Origin: Nanobdellota archaeon | GTDB taxonomy: Archaea > Nanobdellota > Nanobdellia > Pacearchaeales > GW2011-AR1 | Direction: 5' to 3' | Length of the DNA: 64,000 bases | NCBI GenBank assembly: GCA_021818475.1 | Contig: JAKADZ010000002.1 | Span: forward strand, 64,536 to 128,535 | In this document: positions 11,020 to 58,391 of the stretch, one piece after another | Numbering within the stretch: the stretch's first letter is position 1 | How the letters are laid out: every line of letters starts with the position of its first letter | Made by a program: the position numbers and the translations under genes | The notes under the pieces: model-generated | What the model saw: only the letters and a program-made list of their open reading frames with translations | The model's database searches: none | What the model was told of the DNA's origin: nothing

Positions 11020-11060
11020 GCGGACAGCGAAGCTGTCCAAGGGCGGGAGGGCAGGGGATA
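11020..11060 (+). repeat. repeat-family fragment: GAA-loop hairpin + G-quadruplex motif
   Basis: ggacagc-gaa-gctgtcc at 11022-11038, followed by gggcgggagggcagggg at 11041-11057. Confidence 0.7.
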
Positions 11061-11113
11061 AAAAACAAAATTGTAATAAGAGGATATTTTCAGCAAAAAT
11101 AACCCAATCGCAA

Positions 11114-11127
11114 CTTTTATAAATATA
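11114..11127 (+). promoter_or_regulatory. TATA-box-like element upstream of rpoL
   Basis: cttttataaatata lies 18-31 nt upstream of the ATG at 11145. Confidence 0.4.
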
Positions 11128-11144
11128 GTTTTAGATTTCTTTTT

Positions 11145-11408
11145 ATGGAAATGAATATTCTTAAGAATGAAAAGGAAGAACTTGAATTAGAAACAGACAG
11201 CCTGACAATTGCAGAAATTTTGAGAGTTTATCTTAACAAAGATTCTGACGTAACTTTCGCTGCATGGAAAAGAGAACATCCGACAAAAAAAACCACACTT
11301 CTTGTAAAGACAAAAGGCAAAACTGCAAAAAAAGCTATTGATGATGCAGTTTCTGCAATAACAAAAGACCTTGACAGAGTAGAAGCAGATTTCAAGAAAT
11401 TGAAGTAA
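11145..11408 (+). CDS. rpoL: DNA-directed RNA polymerase subunit L (Rpo11)
   Basis: 87 aa. LELETDSLTIAEILRVYLNKDSDVTFAAWKREHPTKKTTLLVKTKGKTAKKAIDDA matches the RpoL/Rpb11 pattern (V-x-F-A-x-Y/W-x-x-x-H-P). Confidence 0.8.
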   Translation: MEMNILKNEKEELELETDSLTIAEILRVYLNKDSDVTFAAWKREHPTKKTTLLVKTKGKTAKKAIDDAVSAITKDLDRVEADFKKLK

Positions 11409-11409
11409 A

Positions 11410-11829
11410 ATGAAAAATATTTCTTTTAAAGACAGATTAAAAATCCTAAGGGGAGAGTTAATTCCGCGAGATTCATCTTTTCTAGAAGAAATTTTAGGAA
11501 ACCACGTTATGCTTAAAGAATTTTCAGGGGCATGGGAAGAGGAAGGGATTTTTGTTAACGGTTGGGAAGGGTATATTTTCCTTTCAAGACATTATTCTGA
11601 TCCTGATCAAAACGGAAGAGGAAATATAATTCTTGCAAGAGAAATTTCTCAAGAGGATATTATTTATTTAACAAAAGAAAAAGAAAAATATTTGATACGA
11701 TTTATAAAAGGAGGACCGACAGCAGTTTATGACGAAGGGGATTTAGATGCAGGATTAAAAGAAGGATATTTTGTTTTTGATAAATTATTAAGCTGTTCAG
11801 GAATCTCTCAAATTAGAAGAGTTAACTAA
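11410..11829 (+). CDS. hypothetical protein (139 aa)
   Basis: ATG lies 1 nt after the rpoL stop, so the two are probably co-transcribed. No motif recognised. Confidence 0.5.
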   Translation: MKNISFKDRLKILRGELIPRDSSFLEEILGNHVMLKEFSGAWEEEGIFVNGWEGYIFLSRHYSDPDQNGRGNIILAREISQEDIIYLTKEKEKYLIRFIKGGPTAVYDEGDLDAGLKEGYFVFDKLLSCSGISQIRRVN

Positions 11830-11861
11830 AAAATTTATAAATATAAAAGATATACATTTAT

Positions 11862-12137
11862 ATGGCAAAAAAGGGTGAAAGAAAAGAAGCCTTATTCAAA
11901 ATTCTCGTTTTTATTATATCGGGAATAATTCTTAATGCATGGGCATACCTCATTGCAATAACCTGCACATTAAACTGGATTGGAACATTAATAAGCGGAA
12001 AAAGAAATAAAGATTTGGCGGAATTTTCAGAATACTTTAATACAGAATTATACAAATTTTCAAGGTATCTTACAGGAGTTTCAAATAAGAGACCTTTCCC
12101 TTTTTCAAAACTGGAAAGAATGAGCAGATTTGGATAA
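11862..12137 (+). CDS. small membrane protein, DUF4389-like (91 aa)
   Basis: Basic N-terminus, then FKILVFIISGIILNAWAYLIAITCTLNWIGTLISGKR and ...RPFPF, resembling DUF4389. Preferred over the overlapping minus ORF 11858-12241, which has no motif. Confidence 0.5.
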   Translation: MAKKGERKEALFKILVFIISGIILNAWAYLIAITCTLNWIGTLISGKRNKDLAEFSEYFNTELYKFSRYLTGVSNKRPFPFSKLERMSRFG

Positions 12138-12200
12138 ATCCAAATATCATTCGTCTCTAAGAGCCAAATGAAAGAATGAGCAGATTTGGATAAATCCAAA
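12114..12200 (+). repeat. 31-bp perfect direct repeat (12114-12144 and 12170-12200)
   Basis: gaaagaatgagcagatttggataaatccaaa occurs twice, 56 bp apart. Each copy contains the inverted repeat tttggat-aa-atccaaa. Copy 1 encodes the last 7 codons plus the stop of 11862-12137. Confidence 0.9.
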
Positions 12201-12239
12201 ACAATAATTCTTATATAATTCTTAATTATCTTCTTTTTC

Positions 12240-12980
12240 ATGGGTTTGGATAAAGTTGAAAAAATATCTACAGGAAGTTATGATTTAAATCGGTGGCTTT
12301 ATGGAGGGTATGAAAAAGGGATTATCACAATGATTGCCGGACCCCCGGGATCAGGAAAAACAAATATGGCCGTTCTTACTGCATGCAGCCAGGCGAAAAA
12401 AGGAAATAAAGTAATTTTTATGGATACTGAAGGGGGGTTTTCACCTGATAGAGTAAAACAAATAGTGGGGGAAAATTTTGAAGAAGTACTGAAAAATATC
12501 TTGTTAATAGAACCAAATAATTTTGAAGAACAAAAAAAACATTTTCAGACGTTGAATAATCAATTAAAAAAAGAACAAATAAGTTTAATTGTGATTGACA
12601 GCATGGCGATGCTTTATAGGTTAGAATTAGGGGATGCAAGAATCAAGGAAACTGATGAAGAAATAAAAAATATAAATCGTGAAGTTGCAAACCAGATGAA
12701 GATACTTGCAGAAATTTCAAAAAAACAAGATATTCCGATTATAATAACAAATCAGGTTTACAGCGGATTTCAATCAGAAGAGGACTGGAAAAAGGGGCTT
12801 GAAAGAGAAATGAATATTGTCGGCGGAGATTTATTTCAGTATTGGAGTAAATGCATAATTCAGTTAAGAAATGAAAAAGGAAAACGAAAAGCAATTTTGA
12901 TAAAACATAGAAGTTTGCCGGAAAAAGAAATGGGATTTGAAATCAAGAACGAAGGAATTTTCAAAAAGAGATGGATATAA
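12240..12980 (+). CDS. radB: DNA repair and recombination protein RadB
   Basis: 246 aa. STGSYDLNRWLYGGYEKGIITMIAGPPGSGKT (Walker A). Short RecA/RadA-family core without the RadA N-terminal domain. Confidence 0.85.
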   Translation: MGLDKVEKISTGSYDLNRWLYGGYEKGIITMIAGPPGSGKTNMAVLTACSQAKKGNKVIFMDTEGGFSPDRVKQIVGENFEEVLKNILLIEPNNFEEQKKHFQTLNNQLKKEQISLIVIDSMAMLYRLELGDARIKETDEEIKNINREVANQMKILAEISKKQDIPIIITNQVYSGFQSEEDWKKGLEREMNIVGGDLFQYWSKCIIQLRNEKGKRKAILIKHRSLPEKEMGFEIKNEGIFKKRWI

Positions 12981-12997
12981 AATAAAATTGAGGCGAT

Positions 12998-14203
12998 ATG
13001 GAAAGCATAAAGTTTGAAACAATAAAAAAAATCAGTGAAATTGGTTTTAGAAACAGAAATTTAAGGAATATTTCAAAATTAGACAGCAATTCTCCTCCGA
13101 GTGTTTTTATCGGCAGCAAATTAAAATATCCATTAGTCAATGTCGGAATCCTGTCTCCTTTGGAAAGAGAAGATAATGTTCAGATTTATGACGATGCAAA
13201 ATTCTGGGCGGAGAATAACTTAAAGATAGAAGATGTTTTAAGGTTAAGAAATGGTTTGTTAAATTCGCGATTTCAGTCAAATGTTCATGATTCAAGAACA
13301 GAAAAAAATTTTGTTCAGATGGCGCAGGAAATAGCAATCGCCTCTAATCCGGTAGATATCGAGATTGAATTAAAAAATAAATTGAATATGAACAGAAATC
13401 CGGACAAGGTCCTTACTCCCCACGGGATGAGTGCAGGATTAAAAAAAGCAAAGATAGTCAGCAATGTAAAAGTTCATCAGAAAGTTGACCGCGTGATAAA
13501 TGATGAAATCAAAGCAAATGAAGGTATCCAGATGCTTTACAAAAATGGATTTAATGAATACACCCTAAGCAAAATTCTCAGTGTCGGTGTTTTAGGGCTG
13601 AAAAAAAATAAAAAACTTGTTCCGACAAGATGGAGCATCACTGCAACAGATGACTCACTGGGAAAAGTTTTGATAAACAAAATAAAAGACTACCCCGTAA
13701 TTGAAAACTATGAATTATTTTTCGGGGAATTTTTGGGAAATCAATACCTGATAATGCTGTTTCCAAGAATTTGGAGCTATGAACTTTTTGAATTATATCT
13801 CCCAAAGAGTTCCTGGAATCCTTCTGATGAGATAAAAGCTTCAACGGATTACGAAAATTATGAAGGAAGAAAAGAATATGCCTATGCAACTGCCGGAGGA
13901 TATTATGCATCACGGCTTCCTATTGCGGAATATCTAAGTTCAATAAAAAAGCAGGCTTCTGCGCTGGTTATCCGAATTGAAACTCCAAGTTATTGGGCAG
14001 GTCTTGGAGTCTGGGTTGTCAGGGAAAGTGTCAGAAAAGCAATTGCAAAAAAAATGGAATTTACCGACGAAAAAGAACTTATGGAAAGTTCAAAAAAAGT
14101 AGGAAAGATAAAATATGGGTTTGATATTTCAGGAATTTTGTCAAAAAGTTTAATATTAAAAGAAAAAAGGGAGCAAAAATCTCTGAGAGATTTTTGGATT
14201 TAA
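12998..14203 (+). CDS. Nre-family DNA repair protein (DUF650/DUF651)
   Basis: 401 aa. PPSVFIGSKLKYPLVNVGILSP N-terminal signature and VPTRWSITATDD. Adjacent to radB. Confidence 0.7.
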   Translation: MESIKFETIKKISEIGFRNRNLRNISKLDSNSPPSVFIGSKLKYPLVNVGILSPLEREDNVQIYDDAKFWAENNLKIEDVLRLRNGLLNSRFQSNVHDSRTEKNFVQMAQEIAIASNPVDIEIELKNKLNMNRNPDKVLTPHGMSAGLKKAKIVSNVKVHQKVDRVINDEIKANEGIQMLYKNGFNEYTLSKILSVGVLGLKKNKKLVPTRWSITATDDSLGKVLINKIKDYPVIENYELFFGEFLGNQYLIMLFPRIWSYELFELYLPKSSWNPSDEIKASTDYENYEGRKEYAYATAGGYYASRLPIAEYLSSIKKQASALVIRIETPSYWAGLGVWVVRESVRKAIAKKMEFTDEKELMESSKKVGKIKYGFDISGILSKSLILKEKREQKSLRDFWI

Positions 14204-14245
14204 AGTAAAATAAAAAAGAAAAAATAAATTAAGAAAAGCAAAATC

Positions 14246-14275
14246 TTACTTTTTCTTTTTCTTTTTAGCTGCCAT
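14246..14275 (-). CDS. micro-ORF MAAKKKKKK (9 aa) behind a perfect Shine-Dalgarno
   Basis: Minus strand reads AAGGAGGTGATTAGATA-ATG GCA GCT AAA AAG AAA AAG AAA AAG TAA. It is part of a 39-nt perfect repeat (14254-14292 = 14452-14490). Confidence 0.3.
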   Translation of the reverse strand: MAAKKKKKK

Positions 14276-14428
14276 TATCTAATCACCTCCTTATAGGATT
14301 ATTATTTTAATGAATAAGAGTATATTAATTTTTTGTTAATAAAAACATAATGAAACAAGAATAGAAGAAGTTTGTGGGGATTAAATCCCCAAATAAAAAA
14401 ATAAAAATAAAACTAAGTAAGACTCACC

Positions 14429-14473
14429 TTACTTTTTTTTCTTTTTTGCTGTCTTTTTCTTTTTAGCTGCCAT
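14429..14473 (-). CDS. micro-ORF MAAKKKKTAKKKKK (14 aa) behind a perfect Shine-Dalgarno
   Basis: Second copy of the same SD + ATG GCA GCT AAA AAG... unit. Confidence 0.3.
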   Translation of the reverse strand: MAAKKKKTAKKKKK

Positions 14474-14670
14474 TATCTAATCACCTCCTTGCTAATAGTA
14501 AAAATAATTTTAGGAAGTATTTAAATGTTATTCTTTTTTCAAATTTTTTTGAAAAAAATATTTTTAGATCAAAAAATTTGTCGTCGGAAAAATAAAAAAT
14601 AAAAATTTATGATAAAAAATAAAAAAAATTTTGCTAAAAAAATGAAAAAAATAATAAAAAATATCAAAAA

Positions 14671-17083: not shown

Positions 17084-17617
17084 ATGGAAAAAGAATTTGA
17101 AGACGAATTCAATCTAAAAAAACAAACAAGTTATGCAATTTTTCTACAATTTAAAACTCCACAGGTTTCTGATTTAGCAATTCCTGATGCAACAAATATT
17201 AAGTATCTTGTAACAATTTCAGGGAGACTTATGAATGGAGAAGATATAAAACCAGAAGAGATAACTTGTGTAACTTCAAATCCTCGTTATAATCATTCAC
17301 AATATTGGAGAAAAGGAAAATTTTTTTCATCACTTTCTCCAAGAGTTTCCGAAGGAATAGAAAAAATATTGGAAGAATCTTATGATGAAAATTCTTTCTT
17401 AGAATTAATTATGTTTCACGGAGATATTCTTGGCAATGAATGGAATTATGGATTTGGAACATGGTACAGATTCAGAGAAGGAAAAAGAGAAAAAGTAGAA
17501 CGGGAAGTTAAACAATATTTCAATGAACAGGAATTGGGTGATTTTGATAAAATAGGAAATTTATTCCAGCCGTTTATAAGAAGAGTCATAGCACCTCATC
17601 CAAACAGAGAAGATTAA
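17084..17617 (+). CDS. hypothetical protein (177 aa)
   Basis: Clean ORF with a TATA-like atatttaaata about 30 nt upstream. A repeat A motif lies 27 nt after its stop. No motif recognised. Confidence 0.55.
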   Translation: MEKEFEDEFNLKKQTSYAIFLQFKTPQVSDLAIPDATNIKYLVTISGRLMNGEDIKPEEITCVTSNPRYNHSQYWRKGKFFSSLSPRVSEGIEKILEESYDENSFLELIMFHGDILGNEWNYGFGTWYRFREGKREKVEREVKQYFNEQELGDFDKIGNLFQPFIRRVIAPHPNRED

Positions 17618-17640
17618 AATTAAATCTCAAATTTTTCAAT

Positions 17641-17755
17641 TTTCTATCACCTCTTTTTCAGTCGAATTTAAAATATTAATAATTCTCACAGATTTTTCTC
17701 CAGTAATAATTTTTATCAGAAATTCTCCAGAGGATGGGCGGGTGGGAACGAGTTG
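17641..17755 (+). repeat. modular intergenic repeat, copy (A motif ... G-run module)
   Basis: ctatcacctcttttt at 17644-17658. About 50 nt are near-identical to 20543-20600 (tatcacctctttttca-n-tgaatttaaaatattaataa). gggcgggtggg at 17736-17746. Confidence 0.8.
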
Positions 17756-17779
17756 AAACAGAAAATAAATTAATTTAAA

Positions 17780-18391
17780 TTAAATCTCAAAAATCTTTTC
17801 CTTTCTTGCAACATTGATTACCTTTGTTTTTCCCATATATTCCTCCATACCTGCAGCTTCATGGATATGGGCAGTGATTAAAATATCCGGCTGAAATTCT
17901 TTTATTGCTTTAGTAACTGCCTTGCTTCCTGGAATTCCTGAAAATTCTGCCTTGCTTCCTTCAGGATGCATATGCGTAACCATAATCTGCTTTGGAGAAT
18001 TTTTAACAGTCTCGTGTCCTTTTTTTAATAAACTAAAAATTTCAGAATCTTTGATGGTGTTAATCCCCACATCAGCAGCACCTGCTCCGAAAATTCCCAG
18101 GTCATCTTTAAGAAAAGAATAACCGTGAATGTTTTTTGTATCCGGGTACATTTCTGCAAGAAAATCTGCCGTTGCGACAGACTCGTGATTTCCTGGAATC
18201 AAAAGGACCTGCTTCTTAGCTTTTACAAAGGGCCCGATTAAATTTTTAGTAGACTGCTCTGCAAAAGTTATATCTCCCGCTAAAATTACTAAGTCCACAT
18301 TTTCCTTCACTGCTTTTTCAGCAAGTTTCTTAACCAGTCCGGTATCTCCATGGATATCTCCTATCGCAAGTATTTTTGTTTTCTTTGACAT
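17780..18391 (-). CDS. metallophosphoesterase (calcineurin-like, YfcE/MJ0936-type)
   Basis: 203 aa with the motifs ILAIGDIHGD, LVILAGDITF, GNHE and MVTHMHP. Confidence 0.85.
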   Translation of the reverse strand: MSKKTKILAIGDIHGDTGLVKKLAEKAVKENVDLVILAGDITFAEQSTKNLIGPFVKAKKQVLLIPGNHESVATADFLAEMYPDTKNIHGYSFLKDDLGIFGAGAADVGINTIKDSEIFSLLKKGHETVKNSPKQIMVTHMHPEGSKAEFSGIPGSKAVTKAIKEFQPDILITAHIHEAAGMEEYMGKTKVINVARKEKIFEI

Positions 18392-27559: not shown

Positions 27560-28204
27560 TTATATTTCCTCTTCCAACTTCTTAATTTTCATCCAGACTT
27601 TTTCAAACTTAGTGTTGGACTCATCAACGATTATTTTTAAAAAATTATCATCGACCAAAAGTTTTCCATCCTGAATTATTGGAAGTTCAATTTTTTCGCT
27701 TGCATTAAGTTCAACAATAAAATTTTTTTTAAGTTCAATAATTCCTGATTTTTTCCATCCCGCTAATTTTCCTTTTTCATAAATTTTTTCAGCATCTTCA
27801 AGTGTTTTGCATGCAATATGGAGAATGCACGGTTCGAATTTGAATTTAATATTTTTAATTCCCTTTTGGGTGGGCGAGCGATTTCGCGAAGGAAAGGTCA
27901 GTGACGAGTGAGCAGGGTCACGAGTTGGGTGGGAACTGGTTATAGAAATCAATTTTCCCAATTCATCTTTCAGTTCCTTAAATGAAATTTTATCGTGGGA
28001 AACAAAAACAAATAAGTTCTCTGCCTTTTTATCCTGGTCAATCATAAGTAAAACTCTTCCTGAACATGAAGAAGTGGTGTAATAATTTTCTAGAGAATTT
28101 ATCTTGTCGCATAAAGAAGAAATTTTCTCATCCCATTTTCCAATTGAAGATTTATCTTCTTTTGAGAGAATATCCTTTTTTCTCTGATTAAAATTGTCTT
28201 TCAT
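27560..28204 (-). CDS. taw3: tRNA wyosine-derivative methyltransferase Taw3/TYW3-like, carrying an in-frame repeat insertion
   Basis: NYYTTSSCSGRVLLM motif of the TYW3 family and ...FEPCILHIACKTLEDAEKIYEKGKLAGWKKSGI. Start placed at ATG 28204 (MKDNFNQRKK); the track ORF extends to 28297. Insert peptide is SHPTRDPAHSSLTFPSRNRSPTQKG. Confidence 0.75.
   Translation of the reverse strand: MKDNFNQRKKDILSKEDKSSIGKWDEKISSLCDKINSLENYYTTSSCSGRVLLMIDQDKKAENLFVFVSHDKISFKELKDELGKLISITSSHPTRDPAHSSLTFPSRNRSPTQKGIKNIKFKFEPCILHIACKTLEDAEKIYEKGKLAGWKKSGIIELKKNFIVELNASEKIELPIIQDGKLLVDDNFLKIIVDESNTKFEKVWMKIKKLEEEI
27862..27938 (+). repeat. GC-rich E module of the repeat family located inside the Taw3-like CDS
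   Basis: ccttttgggtgggcgagcgatttcgcgaaggaaaggtcagtgacgagtgagcagggtcacgagttgggtgggaact. ttgggtggg occurs at both ends (27866-27874 and 27925-27933). Confidence 0.9.
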
Positions 28205-28295
28205 AACAGAAAAATGAAAATGAAGGTTAATAAATTTATCAAGTCCTTTTTGAAGTAGAGTGTAACCAGTTGAACAAAGTTTACTTCTTAATTTC

Positions 28296-28435
28296 AATCA
28301 ATCCAAAAAATTCTGAAAGAATTTTTTGCTCTCTTTCTTTTTTGAGTAGGCAAGCGATTTCGCTAATAGAAATTAATTTCCCTTCGGGTGGGAGGGCGGG
28401 GATTAATGAGCGGGGTCGCGAATTGGGGGGAATTA
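28296..28435 (+). repeat. modular intergenic repeat, copy (D hairpin variant + E module with G-quadruplex motif)
   Basis: caaaaaattc-tgaaa-gaattttttg at 28304-28328. gtaggcaagcgatttcgct... gggtgggagggcgggg at 28386-28401. aatgagcggggtcgcgaattgggggg. Confidence 0.85.
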
Positions 28436-28509
28436 GTAATTAATATAAATTATTTTTTCTCCAATTTGGCTCGTTAGAGACGAATTGTATTAATTTAATA
28501 AATGAAAGG

Positions 28510-30329: not shown

Positions 30330-32498
30330 TTATCTTTTCCTTTTCATTTCCCTTCTAATCTTCCTCTTATTTTTTCTTATTTCTTTTCTCTGCTTTCTAC
30401 TTAGTCCATTCTTAGCTCTTCTGTTATGAATAACTCTGATTAAAACAATTGCAAAAATTCCTGTTAAAATTGTTCCTATTAAGAATTTGAACTGTCCTGA
30501 TTTGTAAAATGAAACTGTGCATTTCCCATTGTCGCATGTGTCTGAGCAGTGGTCTGTTACAAGCCATGTTGCATTTCCTAAACATAATTGAACATTATTG
30601 TCCGCGCATCTTGCAGAATTTGGAAGGCAGTCATATTTGTTGAAGAAAATTGCGAAAGTCGAAAATCCAGGAGTTGAAGATTTGAAGTAATAAGCGTTGT
30701 CATCTTCGCCTGTATAATTTGTAATTAAAGGCGCCCAGCTTGAAGTTCCTGTCGGCATTCTGTAAACTGCAATATTTCCGACGATATCATTTTGCAAGAG
30801 CCAGTATCTGTTCGCTTTATGATGAAAAGTGATATTATTTTCTGCAAGGAAAGTTTTGTTTATTTTGAAATCTAAAGTTGCATTTAAAATGTCATTATAT
30901 TGAATTCCTAATGGTTCAATCTGAAATAACTGATACAATTTCCCTATAGGTAATCCGAATAATAAAAATTCAGTCTGGTCAACTTTAGTAATATTCATTG
31001 ATGCATTTTCAACAGACTTTTTCAGAATTAAAGTTATTCCTGTCAAATCCATTTTTGTATTATTTAATGTTATCTGAACAGGTTCTGAAGGAGCTACATT
31101 CATAATAGGTTTTGAAATTGTAACGCTTCCTCCACCGCCACCCCCACTCGGAGATTGAGGCGGAGCTACATGCCCCCCAGTAGAACAAGTTTGGGTTTCT
31201 GCAGGCTTGCCTGCAGTTGTTCCACAAGCATTTGCGTCAGTGCATGTTCTTGTTTGAATTCCTCCAGAACAATCTGACCAAGCAGAACAACCCCACGATT
31301 CAAAGCAGGGGTTTTGCAGGCTGATATTTGAAGCATTTAACTGATAAATGGTATCTCCTCCAAACATAATATTAAGTACTCCCGCATAAACATATCCTCC
31401 CCCAATAGAGATAGAGTTTCCATGACCTGTAGTGGTGTAATTTGCGATTTGCTGTGAAACATTTGAAGCATTTAACTGATAAATTTCATATGGGCCATTA
31501 TCACTACTAAAATAAACGTAGCCGTTTGAAACTGCTGGAGAAGAAGTTGAAAAACCGCTAATATTTGCGATTTGCTGTGAAACATTTGAAGCATTTAACT
31601 GATAAAAGTCATTGTAGTCTCCAATGTAAACGTAGCCGTTTGAAACTGCGGGGGAATAACTCAGACTGGCTCCAGAAGAATAATTTGCGATTTGCTGTGA
31701 AACATTTGAAGCATTTAACTGATAAAGATTATCTGCCCCTACATAAACGTAGCCGTTTGAAACTGCTGGAGAAGAAGGAACAGTATAAAGAGGTATCAAA
31801 TAATTTGCGATTTGCTGTGAAACATTTGAAGCATTTAACTGATAAATTATATATTTTACTGCTCCCTTAAGAGAACTAGAGACAGTAAAATAAACATAGC
31901 CGTTTGAAACTGCTGGAGAAGAAAATGTTTTTCCCCCAGTTGAAAAACTATTTACCATTTGTGAGATATTTGAAGCATTTAACTGATAAAAATTAAAATT
32001 AACAGAATCTCCAACATAAACATAGCCGTTTGAAACTGCTGGAGAATCAAAAGTATCAATTCCCCCAGAATAATTTGCGATTTGCTGTGAAACATTTGAA
32101 GCATTTAACTGATAAAGACCGTTAGAACCAAAGTATAAAAAACCATTTGCAATAACCGGAGAGGAGGAACATACAGCAGAATAATTTGCGATTTGCTGTG
32201 AAACATTTGAAGCATTTAACTGATAAAGATTATCTGCCCCTACATAAACGTAGCCGTTTGAAATTATAGATGGAGAAGGTATACTTGCTAAGGGATTAAA
32301 GGGAGTAGTAAAATTTGCATTGTTTAAATTAGGAATTACTGTAAAATTCTGCCCATCCCAAAAACTATGACCTAAAGTTCTTCCAAACATTAACCATTCA
32401 CTTGTCGAAGAAGAATCTGAACCCTGACTGGAAATAAATAAAATTAAAAATAATAAACATAATGCAAAAATAAAAAAAATAATCCCCTCTTTTTTCAT
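30330..32498 (-). CDS. large surface protein with ~10 PQQ-like beta-propeller repeats, one Cys-repeat module, C-terminal TM and basic tail
   Basis: 722 aa with a signal peptide. Repeats are of the form SPAVSNGYVYVG...YQLNASNVSQQIANYS. Also CFESWGCSAWSDCSGGIQTRTCTDANACGT, a Gly-rich linker, a TM helix and RRAKNGLSRKQRKEIRKNKRKIRREMKRKR. Confidence 0.8.
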   Translation of the reverse strand: MKKEGIIFFIFALCLLFLILFISSQGSDSSSTSEWLMFGRTLGHSFWDGQNFTVIPNLNNANFTTPFNPLASIPSPSIISNGYVYVGADNLYQLNASNVSQQIANYSAVCSSSPVIANGFLYFGSNGLYQLNASNVSQQIANYSGGIDTFDSPAVSNGYVYVGDSVNFNFYQLNASNISQMVNSFSTGGKTFSSPAVSNGYVYFTVSSSLKGAVKYIIYQLNASNVSQQIANYLIPLYTVPSSPAVSNGYVYVGADNLYQLNASNVSQQIANYSSGASLSYSPAVSNGYVYIGDYNDFYQLNASNVSQQIANISGFSTSSPAVSNGYVYFSSDNGPYEIYQLNASNVSQQIANYTTTGHGNSISIGGGYVYAGVLNIMFGGDTIYQLNASNISLQNPCFESWGCSAWSDCSGGIQTRTCTDANACGTTAGKPAETQTCSTGGHVAPPQSPSGGGGGGSVTISKPIMNVAPSEPVQITLNNTKMDLTGITLILKKSVENASMNITKVDQTEFLLFGLPIGKLYQLFQIEPLGIQYNDILNATLDFKINKTFLAENNITFHHKANRYWLLQNDIVGNIAVYRMPTGTSSWAPLITNYTGEDDNAYYFKSSTPGFSTFAIFFNKYDCLPNSARCADNNVQLCLGNATWLVTDHCSDTCDNGKCTVSFYKSGQFKFLIGTILTGIFAIVLIRVIHNRRAKNGLSRKQRKEIRKNKRKIRREMKRKR
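31321..32270. repeat. array of near-identical intragenic repeats (44-nt perfect core, 6 full + 2 partial copies)
   Basis: atttgcgatttgctgtgaaacatttgaagcatttaactgataaa occurs at 31440, 31563, 31683, 31803, 32073 and 32184. Partial copies lie at 31324 and 31957. Confidence 0.95.
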
Positions 32499-33564: not shown

Positions 33565-34947
33565 TTATTCTCCTTTTCGACGACTTCCTGCCGTCGGGTT
33601 GCTGGAGTTGGGAAGAACCCGCTGGAGGTTAACCTTTTCAAAGCTTCTTGCAATCTGAAATAATTTTTGTTCGTTTAATTTTTCACAGATAATCTGCATT
33701 CCTATGGGGATTTTATCAATTTCCCCCGCAGGTATGCTGATAGCACAGTCCCCTGATAAATTAATGGGGGAAGTTAATGCATCATATTGGAACATTTCCT
33801 CAATTGAAATTTTCTCTCCGATTTTATGGGGAAGCCTTGGAACAGTCGGGCAGATTAAACAATCAAACTTCCTGAAAGTTTTTTTGAATTCTTCCTCAAT
33901 TAACTTCCTTGCTTTCAGAGCAAGATGATAATATCTTCCTGCATGTTCTGCCTTGCTTATTTCACTTCCACCCAAAATTCTTCTCAAAACTTCAGGTCCG
34001 CATGCTTCTTCAATTTTTTTCCCGAATCTTCTGCCATCAAGTCTTCTTGTACATGAAAAAAATTCAGTATAAACAATTGGAAAATAAGTTGCAACAGCAA
34101 AATCGATGTATTCTAATTTTATTTTTTCCGATTTCCACTTATATTTTTTAACAGTTTCCTCAATTTTTTTGTCAATTAAATTCTGAATTCGCAGGTCATT
34201 TATTTTAAAATCCAAAATTCCTATTTTAATATCTCGCGGAACTTCTTCAACTTCTTTGAGATTAATATTACTGCCCAAACTAATTGCATCTTTTTCATCT
34301 TTTCCTTTGATAATATCGAATAAAAGTGCGGCATCAGAAACATTTTTTGCAATCGGCCCGACCTGATCTAAACTCATGCTCATGTCAATTAAACCGTATC
34401 TTGAAACACTCCCGTAGCTTGGTTTTAATCCTACAACTCCGCAATGAGATGCAGGAACTCTTATGCTTCCGCCGGTATCGCTTCCTAAGGACATATCGCA
34501 AAAATCTGCAGAAACACTCGCGCAGCTTCCGGATGAACTTCCTCCCGCAACTAGTCCTAATGATTTTGGATTATTCGTCGCACCAAACGCAGAAGTTTCT
34601 CCGCTCCAGCCGCATGCAAATTCATCGCAGTTTGCCATTCCGATAATTAATCCGTCTTCCTCTTTTATTTTTTTTATAACTTCTGCATCGTAAGGAGATT
34701 TATAATTTTCCAAAACTTTGCTTCCGCATGATGCATGCAATCCAAGAACATTTATGTTAGCTTTAACAGCAATTATTTTTCCTGCAAGTTTTCCCGCTTT
34801 CTTTTTCTTGATTTTCTCATCAATCAGCTTCGCTTCTTCCATCGCATTAGGATTTATCTCAAGAATTGCATTTATTCTGTTTCCGCTTTTATTATGCATT
34901 TCAATCTGATTCAAGTATGTTTGAAGTCGTTCTTGTGTCGTTACCAT
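33565..34947 (-). CDS. gatA: Asp/Glu-tRNA amidotransferase subunit A
   Basis: 460 aa with the amidase signature (GGSSSGSCASV, ANCDEFACG, GSDTGGSIRVPAS). Confidence 0.92.
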   Translation of the reverse strand: MVTTQERLQTYLNQIEMHNKSGNRINAILEINPNAMEEAKLIDEKIKKKKAGKLAGKIIAVKANINVLGLHASCGSKVLENYKSPYDAEVIKKIKEEDGLIIGMANCDEFACGWSGETSAFGATNNPKSLGLVAGGSSSGSCASVSADFCDMSLGSDTGGSIRVPASHCGVVGLKPSYGSVSRYGLIDMSMSLDQVGPIAKNVSDAALLFDIIKGKDEKDAISLGSNINLKEVEEVPRDIKIGILDFKINDLRIQNLIDKKIEETVKKYKWKSEKIKLEYIDFAVATYFPIVYTEFFSCTRRLDGRRFGKKIEEACGPEVLRRILGGSEISKAEHAGRYYHLALKARKLIEEEFKKTFRKFDCLICPTVPRLPHKIGEKISIEEMFQYDALTSPINLSGDCAISIPAGEIDKIPIGMQIICEKLNEQKLFQIARSFEKVNLQRVLPNSSNPTAGSRRKGE

Positions 34948-35312
34948 TTCTTTTTCTCCGCAATTATAAAATCTTTATTTGCTTCTGGTGCATTTTCAAA
35001 CATTATTCTCTTGTCAAGTTCGCAGATTTTTGAAGTTTCGCGAATAGAATTATTTCCCCGTTGGGTGGGCGAGCGATTTCGCGAAGTTGAGGTCAGTGTT
35101 ATGTGAGCGGGGTCGGGAGTTGGGTGGGAATTAATGAGCGAAACAGAATTTTCTTCCCTTTCAAATTTTTCCCGTTCAATTGAATTATCAACTTCAATCT
35201 TTTGTTTAATCTGAGAAAGTTTCTTGGAGAAAGAATCAATTATAGAATCAACCTGTTTCTTTACTTCTTCCTTTTCTTTATCAGACATTTGTCGCCATAA
35301 AAAATCATCCAT
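34941..35312 (-). CDS. gatC: GatC-like amidotransferase subunit C carrying an in-frame repeat insertion
   Basis: Overlaps the gatA start by 7 nt. The C-terminus ...RIMFENAPEANKDFIIAEKK resembles the GatC L-x-N-A-P...F-x-V-P tail. Insert peptide is SHPTPDPAHITLTSTSRNRSPTQRG. Confidence 0.55.
   Translation of the reverse strand: MDDFLWRQMSDKEKEEVKKQVDSIIDSFSKKLSQIKQKIEVDNSIEREKFEREENSVSLINSHPTPDPAHITLTSTSRNRSPTQRGNNSIRETSKICELDKRIMFENAPEANKDFIIAEKKKW
35055..35140 (+). repeat. GC-rich E module of the repeat family located inside the GatC-like CDS
   Basis: tccccgttgggtgggcgagcgatttcgcgaagttgaggtcagtgttatgtgagcggggtcgggagttgggtgggaattaatgagcg. ttgggtggg occurs at 35061-35069 and 35120-35128, the same 59-nt spacing as in the Taw3 copy. 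Confidence 0.9.
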
Positions 35313-44228: not shown

Positions 44229-44625
44229 TTATCACCTCTTTTTTATTTAAGAAGTTGGATTTAATCTGTTTTATTTTGTTGGGATTTCATTTGAGTTTTT
44301 TCTCCTTAACAATTTTTCCGGCGTAGCGTCGTGTCTGAAAGCCGACACAAAGCAATCAATAATAAAAAAAGAAAGGATAAAATTTTTCTTCCCTCTTCGG
44401 ATGTGCGAGCGTTTGCACAAGTGATAACTTTCCTCTTGGGGCGGGGGCGGGAAGAAAATTCCCTTGAATATGAGAAACTTCGCGAGTAGAAACATTTTCC
44501 CTTCGGGCGTGAGGGGGGGAATAAATGAGCGAAGTCGCGAATGAAATTCTATTAAATAAATTTACTCCATAAAAAAATATTCCTTTGGGGAGGGCGGGTG
44601 GGAACGGGTAGAATAAGGCAAGAAA
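44229..44625 (+). repeat. largest cluster of the modular repeat (A motif, hairpin module, several E-type GC modules, G-quadruplex motif)
   Basis: ttatcacctctttttt at 44229-44244. gtgtc-tgaaagcc-gacac hairpin. gatgtgcgagcgtttgcac. ggggcgggggcggg at 44438-44451. aatgagcgaagtcgcgaatg. ggggagggcgggtggg at 44587-44602. Confidence 0.85.
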
Positions 44626-47180: not shown

Positions 47181-47196
47181 ATTTCTATAAAATAAT

Positions 47197-52627: not shown

Positions 52628-52699
52628 ATTTTAGAAGTTATTTATTTCTAGAAAACATATTAGAAATTTCTCAATAGGAGAAGCTTACTCTAAGAAAAG

Positions 52700-53320: not shown

Positions 53321-53325
53321 TTACT

Positions 53326-53485
53326 TTATCGCCTCTTTTTTAAAACATATTTGCAGTTAATTCTAATTAACCAACAGATTTTTCCCTCATTAACAAATTT
53401 TCCCTCGGGGGTGGGCGAGAGTTTTCGCAATGCCAGTAAATTTTTGAATGCATTTGCGAGGGCTCGAGTTGGGCGGGAACAAGTA
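53326..53485 (+). repeat. modular intergenic repeat, copy (A-motif variant, attaacaaatttt module, long E module)
   Basis: ttatcgcctcttttt at 53326-53340. gggggtgggcgagagttttcgcaatg...tttgcgagggctcgagttgggcgggaac at 53407-53480. Confidence 0.8.
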
Positions 53486-53539
53486 AGGGTTTAAGTGGTA
53501 AATAATAAATAAATACAAACGTGGATTAAAAACAGATTA

Positions 53540-54577: not shown

Positions 54578-54652
54578 AAGAAAAAGAGCAGGCTTTATTA
54601 TATAAGGTTTTGGAACCGAGAGATTTAAAAATATCAAGTTTTCTAAAGAAGA

Positions 54653-55339
54653 ATGGGAAAAACAAGATTAAAGATAAATAAAGAAATACCAGAAATTCGC
54701 TTAGATGACTGGATAAAAAAACATGACTTCGAAATTAGGAAGATTATGGACCTTGAGGAGGTTAGTTTAAATTATACAAAAGAAATTCTTGATGACTTTA
54801 AAAGAACGATAGCCCGAATGGAGCAAGACTTAGATTATCCGTTGCCCATGGAAGATAAACAAATTATATTTGAAAAGAGAGAGAATTTACAAGCCTCAAG
54901 TTATGAAGAAATAATTGAGGAAATAAAAACATACGGGAAAGTTATTTCTCGTGCAGCAGTTTGTGATAGATTAAAAGACGGAACCTTTTTAATAAGACAA
55001 GGAATTTCTGAAAAAGGAAGTTACCTTCCAAAACATTTGGTTTTAGAATATTTATCACATGAATTCGGGCATACTTTAGGAAATTGTATAGAAGATGTAC
55101 TAGATGAAGAACTAAAGGCATATACTTTTGCGTCATTATTCTTTAAGTATTATAACGGAAAATCTCTTTATTCAACATTCACAAATAAACAAAAGGAGGA
55201 TATTCACCGCCGAGCATTAAGAGAACTGGGAAAAATATTGCGGGCAGGAATTTCTGAAGAAACAATTATCTCTCATTTGATTAAGGAAAAGTTTGGAAAA
55301 GCAAAACCAACTGATTTGTTCAAATTTCTTATGAACTAA
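54653..55339 (+). CDS. hypothetical protein with HExxH (HEFGH) motif
   Basis: 228 aa. YLSHEFGHTLGNCIEDVLDEELKAY could be a gluzincin-like site. Otherwise unrecognised. Confidence 0.5.
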   Translation: MGKTRLKINKEIPEIRLDDWIKKHDFEIRKIMDLEEVSLNYTKEILDDFKRTIARMEQDLDYPLPMEDKQIIFEKRENLQASSYEEIIEEIKTYGKVISRAAVCDRLKDGTFLIRQGISEKGSYLPKHLVLEYLSHEFGHTLGNCIEDVLDEELKAYTFASLFFKYYNGKSLYSTFTNKQKEDIHRRALRELGKILRAGISEETIISHLIKEKFGKAKPTDLFKFLMN

Positions 55340-56391
55340 AAATTCTCTTTAATTTCAGTTTCTAATTTTTTGTATCCAAAAAAGTCAGTTGTATAGTTAT
55401 ATGCTCCTGCGTTCAGGAAAACAATTTTATCTCCAACTTTTATGTTTTTGTTTAATCTGACTTTATATCTAAAAATATCATCTCTCGTTGGGGAATTCCC
55501 TTTTATCAAAAAATAGCTTCCTTCCTCGTTTTCAGAAAGTTCTCCTTCAACCAGCATTTTAGTCTCAGTTAAAATTGTATCAAGAGCACAGTTGTAAATA
55601 GTGGTATTAAGAATTAAATTATTATCATATTTTTGAATTATTTCTGCTGCAAGTTTAATGCAAGGAGCAGCAAGGAATCTTCCGGGCTCAATAATTGTTT
55701 CAATCCCTTTTTCATCAAGCCATTTTTTTGTTTCCTTTAATTTTGAAAAAATGTATTTAAATGAATCAGGATTTGAATTTCTGTAAATACTGGGAATTCC
55801 CCCTCCTAAATTTACAAAATCTATTCTGTCAAAACTCTCTTCAGTCAAAGAATCTTTCAGTTCATCAATAATTTCCCACTCGGAAGTGTTTTGAGATTTT
55901 CGGTGGAGATTAATTCCAAGTTTATTTATTAGAGGATTATTTTTTATTTTAGAGATTAATTCATTGACTTTTGATGAAGGCATACCATAAACAAAATATT
56001 TCCCCGTCCCGATTCTATGCTCCTGAAATTTCATCCTTAAAGAAAGATTAATTTCTGTTTTTGTTTTCTCAATAAGGCTTAAAATTCTTTCAAAATCAAC
56101 TTCATTATCAACAACAAAATTTCTTACTCCTTTATTCAAAATTTCTTTTAGTTCTTCCTCAGATTCTGCCTGGGTAAAAAACCAGATTTTAAATTTGTCT
56201 TTTATCATTTCAATTTCTTCTTCAGCATGAATTGAAAAGTCAACATTTTTTCCTTCGGGCAAATTCTGGATTATATCCCCAACAATTCTATTTGTTTTAT
56301 AAGAGTAAGAAATTTTCATTCCTATTTCTTCGAGGCTTTTTATCTGTTCTTTCAGGATTTTTTTAGATAAAATAAATTTAGCTTCGCTCAT
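55336..56391 (-). CDS. PLP-dependent decarboxylase, Orn/DAP/Arg decarboxylase family (fold III)
   Basis: 351 aa. YSYKTN (PLP Lys), NLGGGIPS and EPGRFLAAP motifs. Its ATG overlaps the dys stop (ATGA). Confidence 0.75.
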   Translation of the reverse strand: MSEAKFILSKKILKEQIKSLEEIGMKISYSYKTNRIVGDIIQNLPEGKNVDFSIHAEEEIEMIKDKFKIWFFTQAESEEELKEILNKGVRNFVVDNEVDFERILSLIEKTKTEINLSLRMKFQEHRIGTGKYFVYGMPSSKVNELISKIKNNPLINKLGINLHRKSQNTSEWEIIDELKDSLTEESFDRIDFVNLGGGIPSIYRNSNPDSFKYIFSKLKETKKWLDEKGIETIIEPGRFLAAPCIKLAAEIIQKYDNNLILNTTIYNCALDTILTETKMLVEGELSENEEGSYFLIKGNSPTRDDIFRYKVRLNKNIKVGDKIVFLNAGAYNYTTDFFGYKKLETEIKENF

Positions 56392-57326
56392 TTCAATAAT
56401 CCTTCTTTTTTCATTTTTTCGAGAACACTGCTCATTATGAGAGGAAAAGTTATTGAAACATCTCCGATAACTGTAGCAGCTTCTCCGTCATCTTTTATTT
56501 TTCCCCATGATTTTGCTTCCTGTGTCGTAGCCCCCGACATAGAGCCGGAACTTGAATGCGAAGTTGTAAGATAAACTGCATAATCAAAACCTCCTGAAAG
56601 CAAAGCAGCAAAGATTGCATAATGTTTTGAGATGCTCCCTCCTAAGGAGATTAATCCTTTTTTCTCATCAAAACTTAAATCAACAGTTATTCTCTCCATA
56701 TCTTTTATGACATCAACAACAAAATCAGGATGTTTTTGCTGGAACATATATAACTGAAAACCAAAAGAAGAATCTGCAATTCCTGGGCAATAAATAGGAA
56801 TATTATTTTTAGCTGCCTGAAATAAAACTGAATTATTATCGTTTAGCATCATTCCTATTTCATAAATTAATTCAGAAGAGGAAATTCTTTTTTTCTTCTC
56901 ATAAATTTTTTCTAAAAGTTCAGTCATCTTATCTTCAAATTTCATGTAACCCGAAGTATGGATTAACAAATTGCCAACTCTGTTTTCCCCGCGTTCATGC
57001 ATTGAAACATCATCAGCATTAAAATTAGTTATTTCAAAATTTTCTCCAAGAGATTTTATGATATCTTCCTCAATCGAACCGGAAGTGGTTACGAGAATAT
57101 TTGGAATATTTAATTCGCATAATTGTGCAAAAAATCCTCTCAATCCAGAAGTCGCCATGTTAGAAGTAAATGTAAGAAAAATCCTTGCATTTGTTCTTTT
57201 CATTTTCATAATTACTTTGACTGCTTCAGAAAGTTCTGTCGCCTGATAGCCGACAGAGCCGAGACTATCAACGAGCGCCTCAACAGACATACCTTCAGAC
57301 CATAAAAAATCTTTGACTAATTTCAT
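56388..57326 (-). CDS. dys: deoxyhypusine synthase
   Basis: 312 aa. IFLTFTSNMATSGLRG, NILVTTSGSIEEDI and LISLGGSISKH blocks are typical of DHS. Confidence 0.88.
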   Translation of the reverse strand: MKLVKDFLWSEGMSVEALVDSLGSVGYQATELSEAVKVIMKMKRTNARIFLTFTSNMATSGLRGFFAQLCELNIPNILVTTSGSIEEDIIKSLGENFEITNFNADDVSMHERGENRVGNLLIHTSGYMKFEDKMTELLEKIYEKKKRISSSELIYEIGMMLNDNNSVLFQAAKNNIPIYCPGIADSSFGFQLYMFQQKHPDFVVDVIKDMERITVDLSFDEKKGLISLGGSISKHYAIFAALLSGGFDYAVYLTTSHSSSGSMSGATTQEAKSWGKIKDDGEAATVIGDVSITFPLIMSSVLEKMKKEGLLK

Positions 57327-57480
57327 TTTAGAAAAAGCACAGCTACACTTATTGTTTTGGAATCGGAATCGCCAAAATAGTGTAATCGCTCTGCATAAAA
57401 AAACTAAAATAAGGTCATTTTTAAATCTTCCTCAAGAAATATTCAAAGTTCTAAAGACATAAGTTTCAGGCGAGTCAATC

Positions 57481-58233
57481 CTAACTTGCTCTCCTAACTG
57501 CCCTTACCCCGAGAGCGGAAAACTGATTAGAGGGAATCCTGCTGCAAATGAGGCTAACCCACTCGGGATCAGCAACGAACCTAGCGACTGAATTATTATC
57601 GCTTCGCGAATACCAATAATATAAATTTCCTGATTTAATTTTTTTATTTGGAAGTCCTTGTTTTGTATGAGAGTTATCTAAATAATCTTCCAAAGAAATT
57701 CCCGGCTCTTTATCTTTCATTAGAGTATCTCTATCAAGAATGTTTGAACTTCTTGGAACAAGATTTCCATTTGAATCTAAAATATGATTATAATTAATTA
57801 CTAAATCTTTTCCGTTTGTTTTAAAATAAGCATCAATCCATTCTGCTCTCTGAGGATTTCTTACTTCGGTAATTTCTTTGTAAATATCTTGGTGATTTAT
57901 TTTGCAATATTTCAAGAACTCAATAAACTCAGGAAGAATCAACATTCTTTCATTATTTGCCTGAAGAAGTTTATGGCAATCAAACCAATTTTCTCCTAAA
58001 CAAGTTCTTTCTTTTGCAACATAAAGATTTATTGAAGGAACATAAATAAAACGATTATCTTTTTGAAGAGAAGTATGTCTTTCTAATATCTCTTTTACTC
58101 TCTCTTGATTTAATCTTAAACTTGGATCAGAACAAACTTCCTGAATAAATGATAAATCTTCTCCTTGAGATAAGAAATCTCTGATTATCTCTCTTTCTGT
58201 CTGATAAGTTTCAGTTAATTCTTCAGTTTGCAT
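57481..58233 (-). CDS. hypothetical protein (250 aa) with a GC-rich 3' end
   Basis: Clean ORF with no motif recognised. The last ~40 codons (57481-57610) are visibly GC-richer than the rest. Confidence 0.5.
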   Translation of the reverse strand: MQTEELTETYQTEREIIRDFLSQGEDLSFIQEVCSDPSLRLNQERVKEILERHTSLQKDNRFIYVPSINLYVAKERTCLGENWFDCHKLLQANNERMLILPEFIEFLKYCKINHQDIYKEITEVRNPQRAEWIDAYFKTNGKDLVINYNHILDSNGNLVPRSSNILDRDTLMKDKEPGISLEDYLDNSHTKQGLPNKKIKSGNLYYWYSRSDNNSVARFVADPEWVSLICSRIPSNQFSALGVRAVRRAS

Positions 58234-58360
58234 TCTATTACCTGATTAATCTTATTTAAAAAACTTTCTAATGTAACTTCTTAAAAGTTATAACAATAAA
58301 GAGGTTATTAATAACTTTTTTAGATTAACAAAATTTTCAATAATATCAAAAAAAGGGTAA

Positions 58361-58391
58361 CTTTTTCCCTCAGGGTGGGCGGGTGGGACTG
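58361..58391 (+). repeat. repeat-family fragment: short E module = G-quadruplex motif
   Basis: ctttttccctcagggtgggcgggtgggactg, with gggtgggcgggtggg at 58373-58387. Confidence 0.75.

Follow-up and report, generated by a model that had tools for sequence, protein, structure and literature searches.

A family of short, co-oriented G-tract and hairpin elements in a Pacearchaeota-like DPANN archaeon

A stretch of 64,000 nt from a Nanobdellota archaeon (Pacearchaeales; GW2011-AR1; assembly GCA_021818475.1, contig JAKADZ010000002.1, positions 64,536–128,535 of the forward strand), hereafter called the window, carries a family of short GC-rich interspersed elements. The G-quadruplex (G4) motifs of the window are the G-tract cores of these elements, which fold on one strand and belong to Pacearchaeota-like DPANN archaea. 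With slightly more confidence than doubt, we regard them as non-autonomous selfish structured insertions, comparable to Rickettsia palindromic elements (RPEs) or repetitive extragenic palindromes (REPs), that spread with a replication-coupled single-strand step. A full-text literature search returned no description of this family, which apparently has not been described previously, and a survey of G4s in Archaea gives bulk frequencies only (PMC7565180). Position numbers below are window coordinates, and L-numbers denote loci from other DPANN genomes or assemblies.

The GC content of the window is 32.8%, and it encodes approximately 55 open reading frames (ORFs) separated by 11.3 kb of intergenic DNA. 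A preliminary description of the sequence had listed five canonical G4 motifs and two three-tract near-motifs, all with the G strand on +, and had claimed that they are embedded in a repeat family and too frequent for chance in such AT-rich DNA. All of these claims held. The five motifs are located at 11041–11057 (GGGCGGGAGGGCAGGGG), 21489–21505 (GGGGCGGGTGGGCCGGG), 28386–28401 (GGGTGGGAGGGCGGGG), 44587–44602 (GGGGAGGGCGGGTGGG, with a fifth tract extending to 44608) and 58373–58387 (GGGTGGGCGGGTGGG), and the near-motifs at 17736–17746 (GGGCGGGTGGG) and 44438–44451 (GGGGCGGGGGCGGG). A scan of both strands of the whole window with the pattern (G3+N1-7)x4 gave six matches on + and none on −, the sixth, at 35109–35128, being the 3' half of a longer module described below. 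In simulated 64-kb sequences, 300 for each of the Markov orders 1, 3 and 5, tight motifs had a mean of 0–0.063 per 64 kb against the five observed, and motifs with 1–7-nt loops a mean of 0.03–0.21 against six. The simpler GGGNGGG pattern, with a density of about one per 2.4 kb, is equally one-sided, with 27 occurrences on + and two on − in the window, and 21 to one within intergenic DNA.

Five of the six G4 motifs are found outside annotated housekeeping genes, and the one at 35109 is inside an ORF of 123 amino acids. Since the genes flanking a motif may be both on +, both on −, convergent or divergent, motif orientation is independent of the transcription units. In genes of relatives, loose GGGNGGG matches track gene orientation and represent coding background; in relatives, counts were restricted to intergenic sites, profile matches and sites where three or more tracts are present.

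Repeat searches and direct reading revealed that the family is a mosaic of modules, all in one orientation. The short form consists of a pyrimidine leader (TTYCCYTY) followed by three to five G tracts with loops of 1–2 nt, and ViennaRNA with its G4 option predicts a quadruplex for it, with energies of −39 to −43 kcal/mol. Strict sites have three, four or five tracts in roughly equal numbers, and since this number varies among copies and strains, the canonical four-tract G4 potential does not appear to be strictly conserved. A second type of module is a hairpin with a GAA triloop and either an A/T-rich or a GC-rich stem. The long module, E, reads GGGTGGG-CGAGCGATTTCGCG-(approximately 25–30 variable nt)-GAGCGGGGTCGCGAG-TT-GGGTGGG, where the two conserved stretches are boxes 1 and 2; the same frame can be read as GGGTGGG-CGA-hairpin-GAG-TT-GGGTGGG, with the tract pairs about 50 nt apart. 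The feature common to all element types is the GGGYGGG tract pair.

Hairpins with a GAA loop and a perfect stem of at least 6 bp number eight on + and one on − in the window, which means that even the palindromic modules are strand-specific. GAA-triloop hairpins, with GAA on + throughout, were noted at 1205–1229, 11022–11038, 21450–21474 and 28304–28328, and imperfect ones near 1163, 27481 and 58797. The idea that a hairpin always precedes the G run was discarded: stems of at least 7 bp were found at 36% of 22 sites compared with 21.5% of random positions, a weak feature confined to a subset of elements.

The E module: conservation, fold and residence in genes

The exact E 21-mer GGGNGGGCGAGCGATTTCGCG was found in 11 loci of nine metagenome-assembled genomes of Pacearchaeota, Woesearchaeota and Nanoarchaeota, and its two other matches, in GC-rich bacteria, are due to chance. 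The window holds six E-like copies according to a profile hidden Markov model, all on +, and seven according to a covariance model, which identifies 31 copies in 743 kb of DPANN loci. RNAalifold pairs GCGAUUUCGC of box 1 with GCGGGGUCGC of box 2 in a stem of 12 pairs, three of them U.G pairs in a row; a tandem G.A step prolongs the helix, which encloses a variable loop of about 30 nt.

In this stem 94.8% of the alignment cells are paired, compared with 31–51% in slid controls, the alignment having been fitted to the covariance model, which favours structure. Compensatory double changes are present at 9 of the 12 pairs, and 25 cells are changed on both sides, compared with 4.2 ± 1.8 in shuffled alignments (none of 500 shuffles reached 25). 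These changes come from diverged copies in which the box framing is retained (scores of 25–47 bits, E-values 1e-3 to 1e-9); in most of them the GGGYGGG-CGA...GAG-TT-GGGYGGG frame is retained as well. The 3' tract pair is lost in about half of the E copies. Each copy has three or four G.U wobble pairs, and because these are A.C mismatches on the opposite strand, only the G strand folds; the predicted energies are −19 to −29 kcal/mol for the G strand and −9 to −17 kcal/mol for the C strand. This pattern shows structural selection acting on the E hairpin as folded by the G strand. The hairpin, once formed, would bring both GGGTGGG pairs together, giving E the architecture of a G4 with a duplex as central loop. 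On structural grounds, the short and long forms may share one plan, the short form having the same four tracts with 1-nt loops.

The preliminary description had interpreted E as the G-run motif split by an insert of about 50 nt, possibly through nested insertion. The same GGGTGGG pairs are indeed present about 50 nt apart. However, a recent insert into a G4 does not fit an old unit that is found in at least nine DPANN genomes and whose hairpin is under structural selection. Nesting does exist, in one clear case, but in the reverse direction, as the short G4 at 28386–28401 lies inside the loop of an E-like stem (28348–28429).

A conserved stem could also mean that the G strand is transcribed, as a small or cis-acting RNA with the hairpin, and possibly an RNA G4, as its functional unit, or that the elements are retroposons resembling short interspersed nuclear elements (SINEs), copied via RNA by a reverse transcriptase resident in the genome. 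Both the G.U wobbles and the tandem G.A step are characteristic of helices in RNA, and covariation is present. Furthermore, the variable flanking repeats of 15–24 nt, described below, and the short A-rich ends of two units resemble the products of target-primed reverse transcription, and reverse transcriptases exist in these lineages (L011 carries RVT_1). We nevertheless consider this rather unlikely. Sense and antisense copies occur without preference, so many of them would need a promoter of their own, and the orientation follows the chromosome strand, not the transcription units. No reverse transcriptase is encoded in the window, that of L011 is itself broken by an E copy, and GAA-triloop mini-hairpins are especially stable as DNA. 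A known RNA family was rejected on the basis of Rfam 15, where only two tRNAs reached the gathering score and no element gave a match even at E = 5.

The copy at 27858–27940 is located inside the TYW3 gene (27560–28204, −), in frame and with the C strand as sense. The encoded protein has 214 amino acids compared with 185–188 in relatives, the insert accounting for 27 codons and encoding a disordered loop, and homologues in the PDB align on both sides of it. Locus L016, from a relative with 76–86% identity, lacks exactly these 81 nt (27 codons). AlphaFold2 modelled the protein with confidence except for residues 91–114, the peptide encoded by the element, which form a coil between a helix and a strand with a predicted local distance difference test score (pLDDT) below 50. 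Among 60 relatives, 24 have the base length at this site and approximately 25 carry 10–55 extra residues, some encoded by recognisably E-like DNA and others by AT-decayed DNA that is still in frame. This TYW3 loop is a long-standing insertion site.

The retention of AT-decayed remnants in frame argues for translation and against splicing. An mRNA intron of the bulge-helix-bulge type was rejected, since the junctions are both G tracts and unable to pair, copies occur in both senses and the decayed remnants remain in frame. An intein was rejected together with the intron, on the same three points.

In other loci, E was found inside genes with Pfam-confirmed products, namely MnmA, PheT, GatA, an ELP3-like radical-SAM enzyme and a reverse transcriptase. 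Copies inside genes occur in all frames and in both senses, with no preference for sense or antisense. The E core is 57 nt long in 10 of 15 copies, and on average 3.4 of its six frames are open, compared with 2.3 of six in random windows. Only one copy inside a gene was seen to break the frame: at 5784–5858 of L011, a reverse transcriptase gene (RVT_1 and HTH_40, with an IGNLTSQ motif as in diversity-generating retroelements, DGRs) is split into two frames exactly at E. Read-through translation of the other copies would give peptides such as SHPTRDPAHSSLTFPSR. Such in-frame invasion of tRNA-modification and aminoacyl-tRNA synthetase genes would be a way, so far overlooked in these lineages, in which new protein segments arise, and would also give rise to annotation artefacts.

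Strain differences, orientation and mode of spread

Close relatives differ in the presence of elements at the same sites. In addition to the TYW3 insert, L016 lacks the entire 334-nt spacer upstream of TYW3, in which the repeat mosaic with the G4 at 28386 is located, and the neighbouring genes abut. L015, where TYW3 is 94% identical, carries a different G-run element right after the stop codon. Strain A (L097, 88% identity) has an orthologous site for the G4 at 58373, with flanks almost 100% identical; the G run reads GGGGGGGTGGGCGGG in place of GGGTGGGCGGGTGGG, with the 3' tail replaced and at least four tracts kept. The same strain lacks the approximately 300-nt mosaic at 58684–58987, including its E copy at 58909. 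In PheT, a short G-run insert is present in L004 and absent from L006. L001, an assembly of the same strain, is 100% identical to the window and shows no polymorphism. The abundance of elements is uneven among close relatives, and many 20-kb loci have none.

Long direct repeats flank three units and measure 15–16 nt (17616/17776), 17 nt (58863/58977) and 24 nt (L007). With lengths varying in this manner (15, 17, 24 nt) they are not target-site duplications of fixed length; repeats of 15–24 nt point to staggered nicks. The L007 unit is a degenerate E at 2185–2260 (−), located right after the stop codon of aIF2-beta and flanked by a 24-nt duplication of the 3' end of that gene, CATTCTGTTAGAAGTAAGATTTAG and CATTCTGTTAGAAGTAAAATTTAA. 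As for terminal inverted repeats, only 5–7 nt of TTCCC/GGGAA pairing was seen, in some copies in the genome of the window, and this pairing is absent in L003, L005 and L013.

Copies are co-oriented in every locus with at least two strict elements, that is, in L002, L003, L004, L007, L012/L035, L015, L073, L076 and the window, where this holds for 12 of 12 copies. Four-fold degenerate sites show a strong strand asymmetry that is independent of gene orientation, A exceeding T by 0.13 on the + strand of the window (z = 8.8). Read in element orientation, A exceeds T at these sites on the G strand in all seven independent loci with |z| of at least 2, and in 11 of 12 informative loci overall. The strand bias tracks a compositional asymmetry of the chromosome and not the genes. 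Across loci, AT and GC strand skews are inversely correlated (r = −0.93), and 62% of the coding bases are on the T>A, G>C strand. By Lobry's rule and the usual gene-strand bias, this would be the leading strand, and the elements would have their G strand in the lagging-strand sequence, which serves as template for the leading-strand polymerase and has the sequence of the nascent Okazaki strand. Neither an Orc1/Cdc6 gene nor a skew switch was found in 715 kb of DPANN loci, and our literature search returned nothing on DPANN skew or replication origins.

A very strong asymmetry at four-fold sites was also observed in L058, L074, L073, L084 and most DPANN loci, with AT skew reaching ±0.55 and GC skew ∓0.67. 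This asymmetry could be used to orient metagenome contigs relative to replication, and in metagenome-assembled genomes the orientation of the copies could likewise show which way replication proceeds.

The background GC skew on the G strand is negative (C>G) in 10 of 11 loci, so that the G richness of the elements is opposed to the mutational bias of their surroundings. This bears on the suggestion that there is no element at all, and that the G runs arose by local slippage, mutational bias or assembly artefact, with convergent similarity. Tract number and sequence do change fast at an orthologous site, and poly-G runs occur in relatives. However, such an origin is hardly credible: it is already contradicted by the same 57-nt E unit, with its conserved boxes, in unrelated genes and genomes, it would have to act against the background skew, and the sequence was recovered identically from independent assemblies.

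Co-orientation might instead be maintained by selection, if GGGYGGG pairs, with or without the hairpin, were a host-functional polar DNA signal read by a translocase, a recombination machine or the replisome, as an archaeal counterpart of the FtsK orienting polar sequences (KOPS, GGGNAGGG), Chi or Ter. The extreme strand skew (27:2 for the whole window, 21:1 between genes), the density of about one per 2.4 kb (similar to Chi and KOPS), the link to strand asymmetry, the structural selection on the stem and the tract pair shared by all element types are consistent with this. We consider it distinctly unlikely, since a core signal would hardly be so unevenly distributed among close relatives, with many 20-kb loci devoid of it. 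Furthermore, copies are found within coding sequence, where they undergo decay, a given site may differ between close strains, and the strand is opposite to that of KOPS and Chi if Lobry's rule holds.

A strong orientation bias relative to replication-linked skew is also the hallmark of single-strand transposition of the IS200/IS605 or REP/RAYT type (RAYT, REP-associated tyrosine transposase), in which palindrome-associated derivatives would be moved by an HUH Y1 transposase encoded elsewhere. The strand-specific imperfect hairpins, the apparent lack of terminal inverted repeats and the lack of a regular target duplication agree with such a mechanism. In IS608-type elements, however, the active strand is on the lagging-strand template, whereas the folding strand would here be on the leading-strand template. 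No TnpA, RAYT or Y1 gene was found in the annotated window of about 64 kb, a conserved GTAG-type 5' tetranucleotide is missing and the long flanking repeats are unexpected, all of which makes this origin very unlikely.

We return to selfish structured insertions as the reading we lean towards. The elements would have colonised intergenic DNA as well as those surface loops of housekeeping proteins that tolerate insertions; being GC-rich they contain few stop codons, and copies inside genes would be translated as disordered peptides. Folding is confined to the G strand, by means of G.T/G.U wobbles, GAA triloops and possibly G4, and a replication-linked single-strand step would fix the orientation. 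This may have happened in either of two ways. A folded, single-stranded G-strand intermediate might end up in the nascent lagging strand at staggered nicks 15–24 nt apart. Alternatively, insertion might be random and followed by loss of those copies whose G strand is exposed, and folds, on the lagging-strand template.

Possible but doubtful is a wider proposal, namely a DPANN-wide mobile family with a G4/hairpin fold on one strand, where the folded G strand is captured at the fork into the nascent lagging strand at staggered nicks, by no known class of transposase, and continually seeds new disordered loops in essential proteins of these ultra-small archaea. The GGGYGGG pair would then act as a signal, either for recognition or for structure, and a single quadruplex (or quadruplex-duplex) fold would be realised in two ways, by the short and by the long form.

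Several observations weigh against insertion by mobile elements, or against its link to replication. Copies within this genome are only 78–87% identical to each other, so no recent burst is visible, and the PheT copies of E in L004 and L006 are orthologous (51 of 57 nt identical), which shows inheritance by vertical descent and not movement. The covariation could reflect a host function instead of competence to move, and the varying tract number implies that G4 formation may be incidental. Long flanking repeats are present at only three of about 11 window units, a short target-site duplication, suggested by an apparent recurrence of the pyrimidine leader downstream of each G run, was rejected (the 12-nt leader matched the 80-nt downstream flank no better than random controls), and terminal inverted repeats are at most 5 nt long. 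No transposase, reverse transcriptase or integrase is encoded among the roughly 55 window ORFs. A viral or plasmid carrier was rejected too: no copy was found on viral contigs, two scans of IMG/VR giving chance matches in GC-rich contigs only. As for orientation, L076 is discordant, with mixed skew, the GC skew component of the window is weakly opposite in direction, and the assignment of leading and lagging strands derives from Lobry's rule and gene-strand bias and not from a mapped origin.

Individual units in the window and their surroundings

A short-form element (11022–11057, +) lies 71 nt past the stop codon of a + gene (10191–10970) and combines a GAA-triloop hairpin, GGACAGC-GAA-GCTGTCC (11022–11038), with a four-tract G4. 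At 17632–17775 (+) there is a composite intergenic unit of 144 nt containing TATCACCTCTTTTT (17645), the three-tract run GGGCGGGTGGG and the tail AACGAGTTGAAACAG, and flanked by the 15–16-nt direct repeats at 17616–17631 and 17776–17791. The unit at 21436–21505 (+) has an A/T-rich hairpin, CAAAAATTTCT-GAA-AGAAATTTTTG (21450–21474), followed by a leader and the G4 at 21489–21505; a gap of 68 nt separates it from the 3' end of a tRNA gene on the − strand that contains an intron.

The E module in TYW3 (27858–27940, +) has the complete order of leader, GGGTGGG, box 1 (CGAGCGATTTCGCG), variable loop, box 2 and TT-GGGTGGG. Upstream of TYW3, a mosaic at 28290–28437 (+) starts with an A/T-rich GAA hairpin (28304–28328) and continues with the E-like outer stem at 28348–28429; within the loop of this stem, an inner ATTAAT/ATTAAT stem encloses a leader and the G4 at 28386–28401. 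A further E module (35053–35135, +) is found within an ORF on the − strand (34941–35312) and leaves its frame open; its 3' half is the sixth G4 match.

Between the convergent genes for GatB (+) and a small − ORF lies a tandem mosaic of five leader-plus-G-run units (44380–44610, +). It contains a degenerate 5' half of E (44390–44421), GGGGCGGGGGCGGG at 44438–44451, a GGG..GGGGGGG run with the box-2-like GAGCGAAGTCGCGA at 44505–44540, and the G4 at 44587–44608. A short-form element at 58355–58400 (+), in a divergent promoter region, consists of the leader TTTTTCCCTCA and the G4 at 58373–58387. The mosaic of about 300 nt at 58684–58987 includes a degenerate E unit (58861–58993, +), matched by cmsearch at 58904–58978 with 56.6 bits and bounded by a perfect 17-nt direct repeat (58863–58879/58977–58993). 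Two diverged E copies complete the set, one of 47 bits at 53398–53483 (+) between convergent genes, with compensatory stem changes, and one with a longer loop at 7305–7409 (+), matched by the covariance model at 7310–7409 with 37.8 bits. An 8.4-kb leftward extension of the window has weak sites only, in + orientation.

A further short sequence, TATCACCTCTTTT(T), occurs in six copies, all on + and none on −, at 1023, 17645, 20544, 27409 and 44230 and in L100, approximately 5.5 kb to the left of the window. Most of these copies are located 3–40 nt past the stop codons of + genes. The complement, GAGGTGATA, resembles a Shine-Dalgarno site with no start codon downstream, and in strain A and L007 it stands directly upstream of a G run, on the G strand. 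In the unit at 17632–17775, TATCACCTCTTTT and a G run lie together between the same direct repeats.

The surrounding genes include an archaeal housekeeping block identified by Pfam (CDC48, TYW3, GatD/GatE, eRF1, TFE, a RadA-like protein and deoxyhypusine synthase); no Orc1/Cdc6 gene was found in the window. Candidatus Pacearchaeota are the nearest named relatives, and identical proteins are encoded on metagenome contigs of up to 128.7 kb in ENA, NCBI and Logan. The assemblies from several samples all stop about 200 nt past the AlaRS gene, at the right end of the window (approximately 63830–64000), which points to a repeat, or to a region that varies among strains, immediately outside the window.

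The intron-containing tRNA gene (21573–21666, −; intron of 21 nt) was detected by Rfam with 56 bits and missed by ARAGORN. Its first 15–24 nt are repeated twice upstream (21740–21767 and 21848–21865) at spacings of 99 and 98 nt, and these repeats resemble the long flanking duplications around some E units. Two very small lysine-rich genes have near-identical starts at 14254–14292 and 14452–14490 (−), both with a perfect GGAGGTGAT Shine-Dalgarno site, which looks like a local duplication. The gene at 30330–32498 (−) encodes a protein of 722 amino acids with eight internal DNA repeats of about 120 nt and weak Pfam matches to PQQ/beta-propeller families.

Comparison with known systems

DPANN archaea have minimal genomes and are thought to carry few mobile elements. 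A review of miniature inverted-repeat transposable elements lists none from DPANN and presents RPEs as the most extreme example of insertion in frame (PMC10969869). Such miniature elements have a cognate autonomous insertion sequence or transposase in the genome; none was found among the window ORFs. A close likeness is to the RPEs (Ogata et al. 2000; PMC10969869), which are short structured repeats in a small AT-rich genome, reside in frame in unrelated housekeeping genes where they are translated as surface peptides, also occur between genes and have no known cognate transposase. The elements described here likewise sit in frame in unrelated housekeeping ORFs and appear to be translated as added peptides, with the reverse transcriptase of L011 as the exception.

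They are, however, an analogue and not a member of that family. RPEs belong to Rickettsiales, whereas the present host is an archaeon (CDC48, TYW3, GatDE, intron-containing tRNA), and RPEs are 100–150 nt long compared with 57–80 nt here. Unlike RPEs, the present elements are rich in G tracts with G4 potential and are read in any frame and either sense, so that no peptide is conserved. Orientation locked to the chromosome strand is not an RPE feature either. As far as our search could find, this would be the first archaeal counterpart of RPEs.

GC clusters of yeast mitochondria, and the byp elements, are similar in being GC-rich mobile islands of a very AT-rich genome that occur both between genes and in coding regions (VAR1). 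In contrast, these islands are mitochondrial, and byp elements break the reading frame and are bypassed by the ribosome, whereas frames are open here and the decayed remnants point to ordinary translation. To our knowledge, neither a G-tract/hairpin plan nor strand locking has been described for the yeast clusters. The G-tract/hairpin plan, and an orientation that appears locked to replication-linked asymmetry, would thus set the present family apart from both RPEs and GC clusters.

REPs and their composites, the bacterial interspersed mosaic elements (BIMEs), together with RAYT and other IS200/IS605-derived elements, share with our family a mosaic of modular, imperfect, strand-specific intergenic hairpins, apparently without terminal inverted repeats, and the IS200/IS605 mechanism also produces a replication-linked orientation bias. 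Here, in contrast to REP/BIME-RAYT systems, copies are intragenic too (TYW3, PheT, MnmA, GatA, ELP3-like), there is no GTAG guide tetranucleotide and the window has no Y1 gene. The polarity is apparently opposite to that of IS200/IS605, if Lobry's rule and gene-strand bias place the folding strand correctly. KOPS and Chi are likewise short G-rich motifs with extreme replication-linked skew and one copy per few kb; here the motif is carried by repeated elements, is absent or rare in close relatives and is on the opposite strand.

DGR targets, which combine a GC-rich initiation of mutagenic homology (IMH) sequence with a GNRA-type hairpin, are similar in that a GC-only stretch of about 15 nt lies beside a short hairpin with a GAA(A)-type loop, and DGRs are common in the same lineages. 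However, the elements here are dispersed over unrelated contexts, and on the G strand the hairpin and the GC stretch follow each other in the opposite order. A DGR target site was rejected, as a repeat search gave no template-repeat/variable-repeat pair around the elements and the window has no reverse transcriptase.

With respect to structure, E resembles quadruplex-duplex hybrids, in which a stem-loop forms a long loop of a G4 and which, according to Lim and Phan in 2013 and Lim et al. in 2015, reportedly fold in vitro. The resemblance, of two plus two G tracts bracketing a stable hairpin, is one of structural plan only; a G4 loop of 50 nt is beyond the ViennaRNA model, and many E copies differ from the ideal hybrid in lacking the 3' tract pair. 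The short and long forms provide ready-made sequences for comparing quadruplex with quadruplex-duplex folding. The replisome of archaea is of the eukaryotic type, and its MCM moves along the leading-strand template. A strand-locked fold specific to the G strand could therefore offer a natural case of G4 or hairpin DNA meeting a replisome of this kind.

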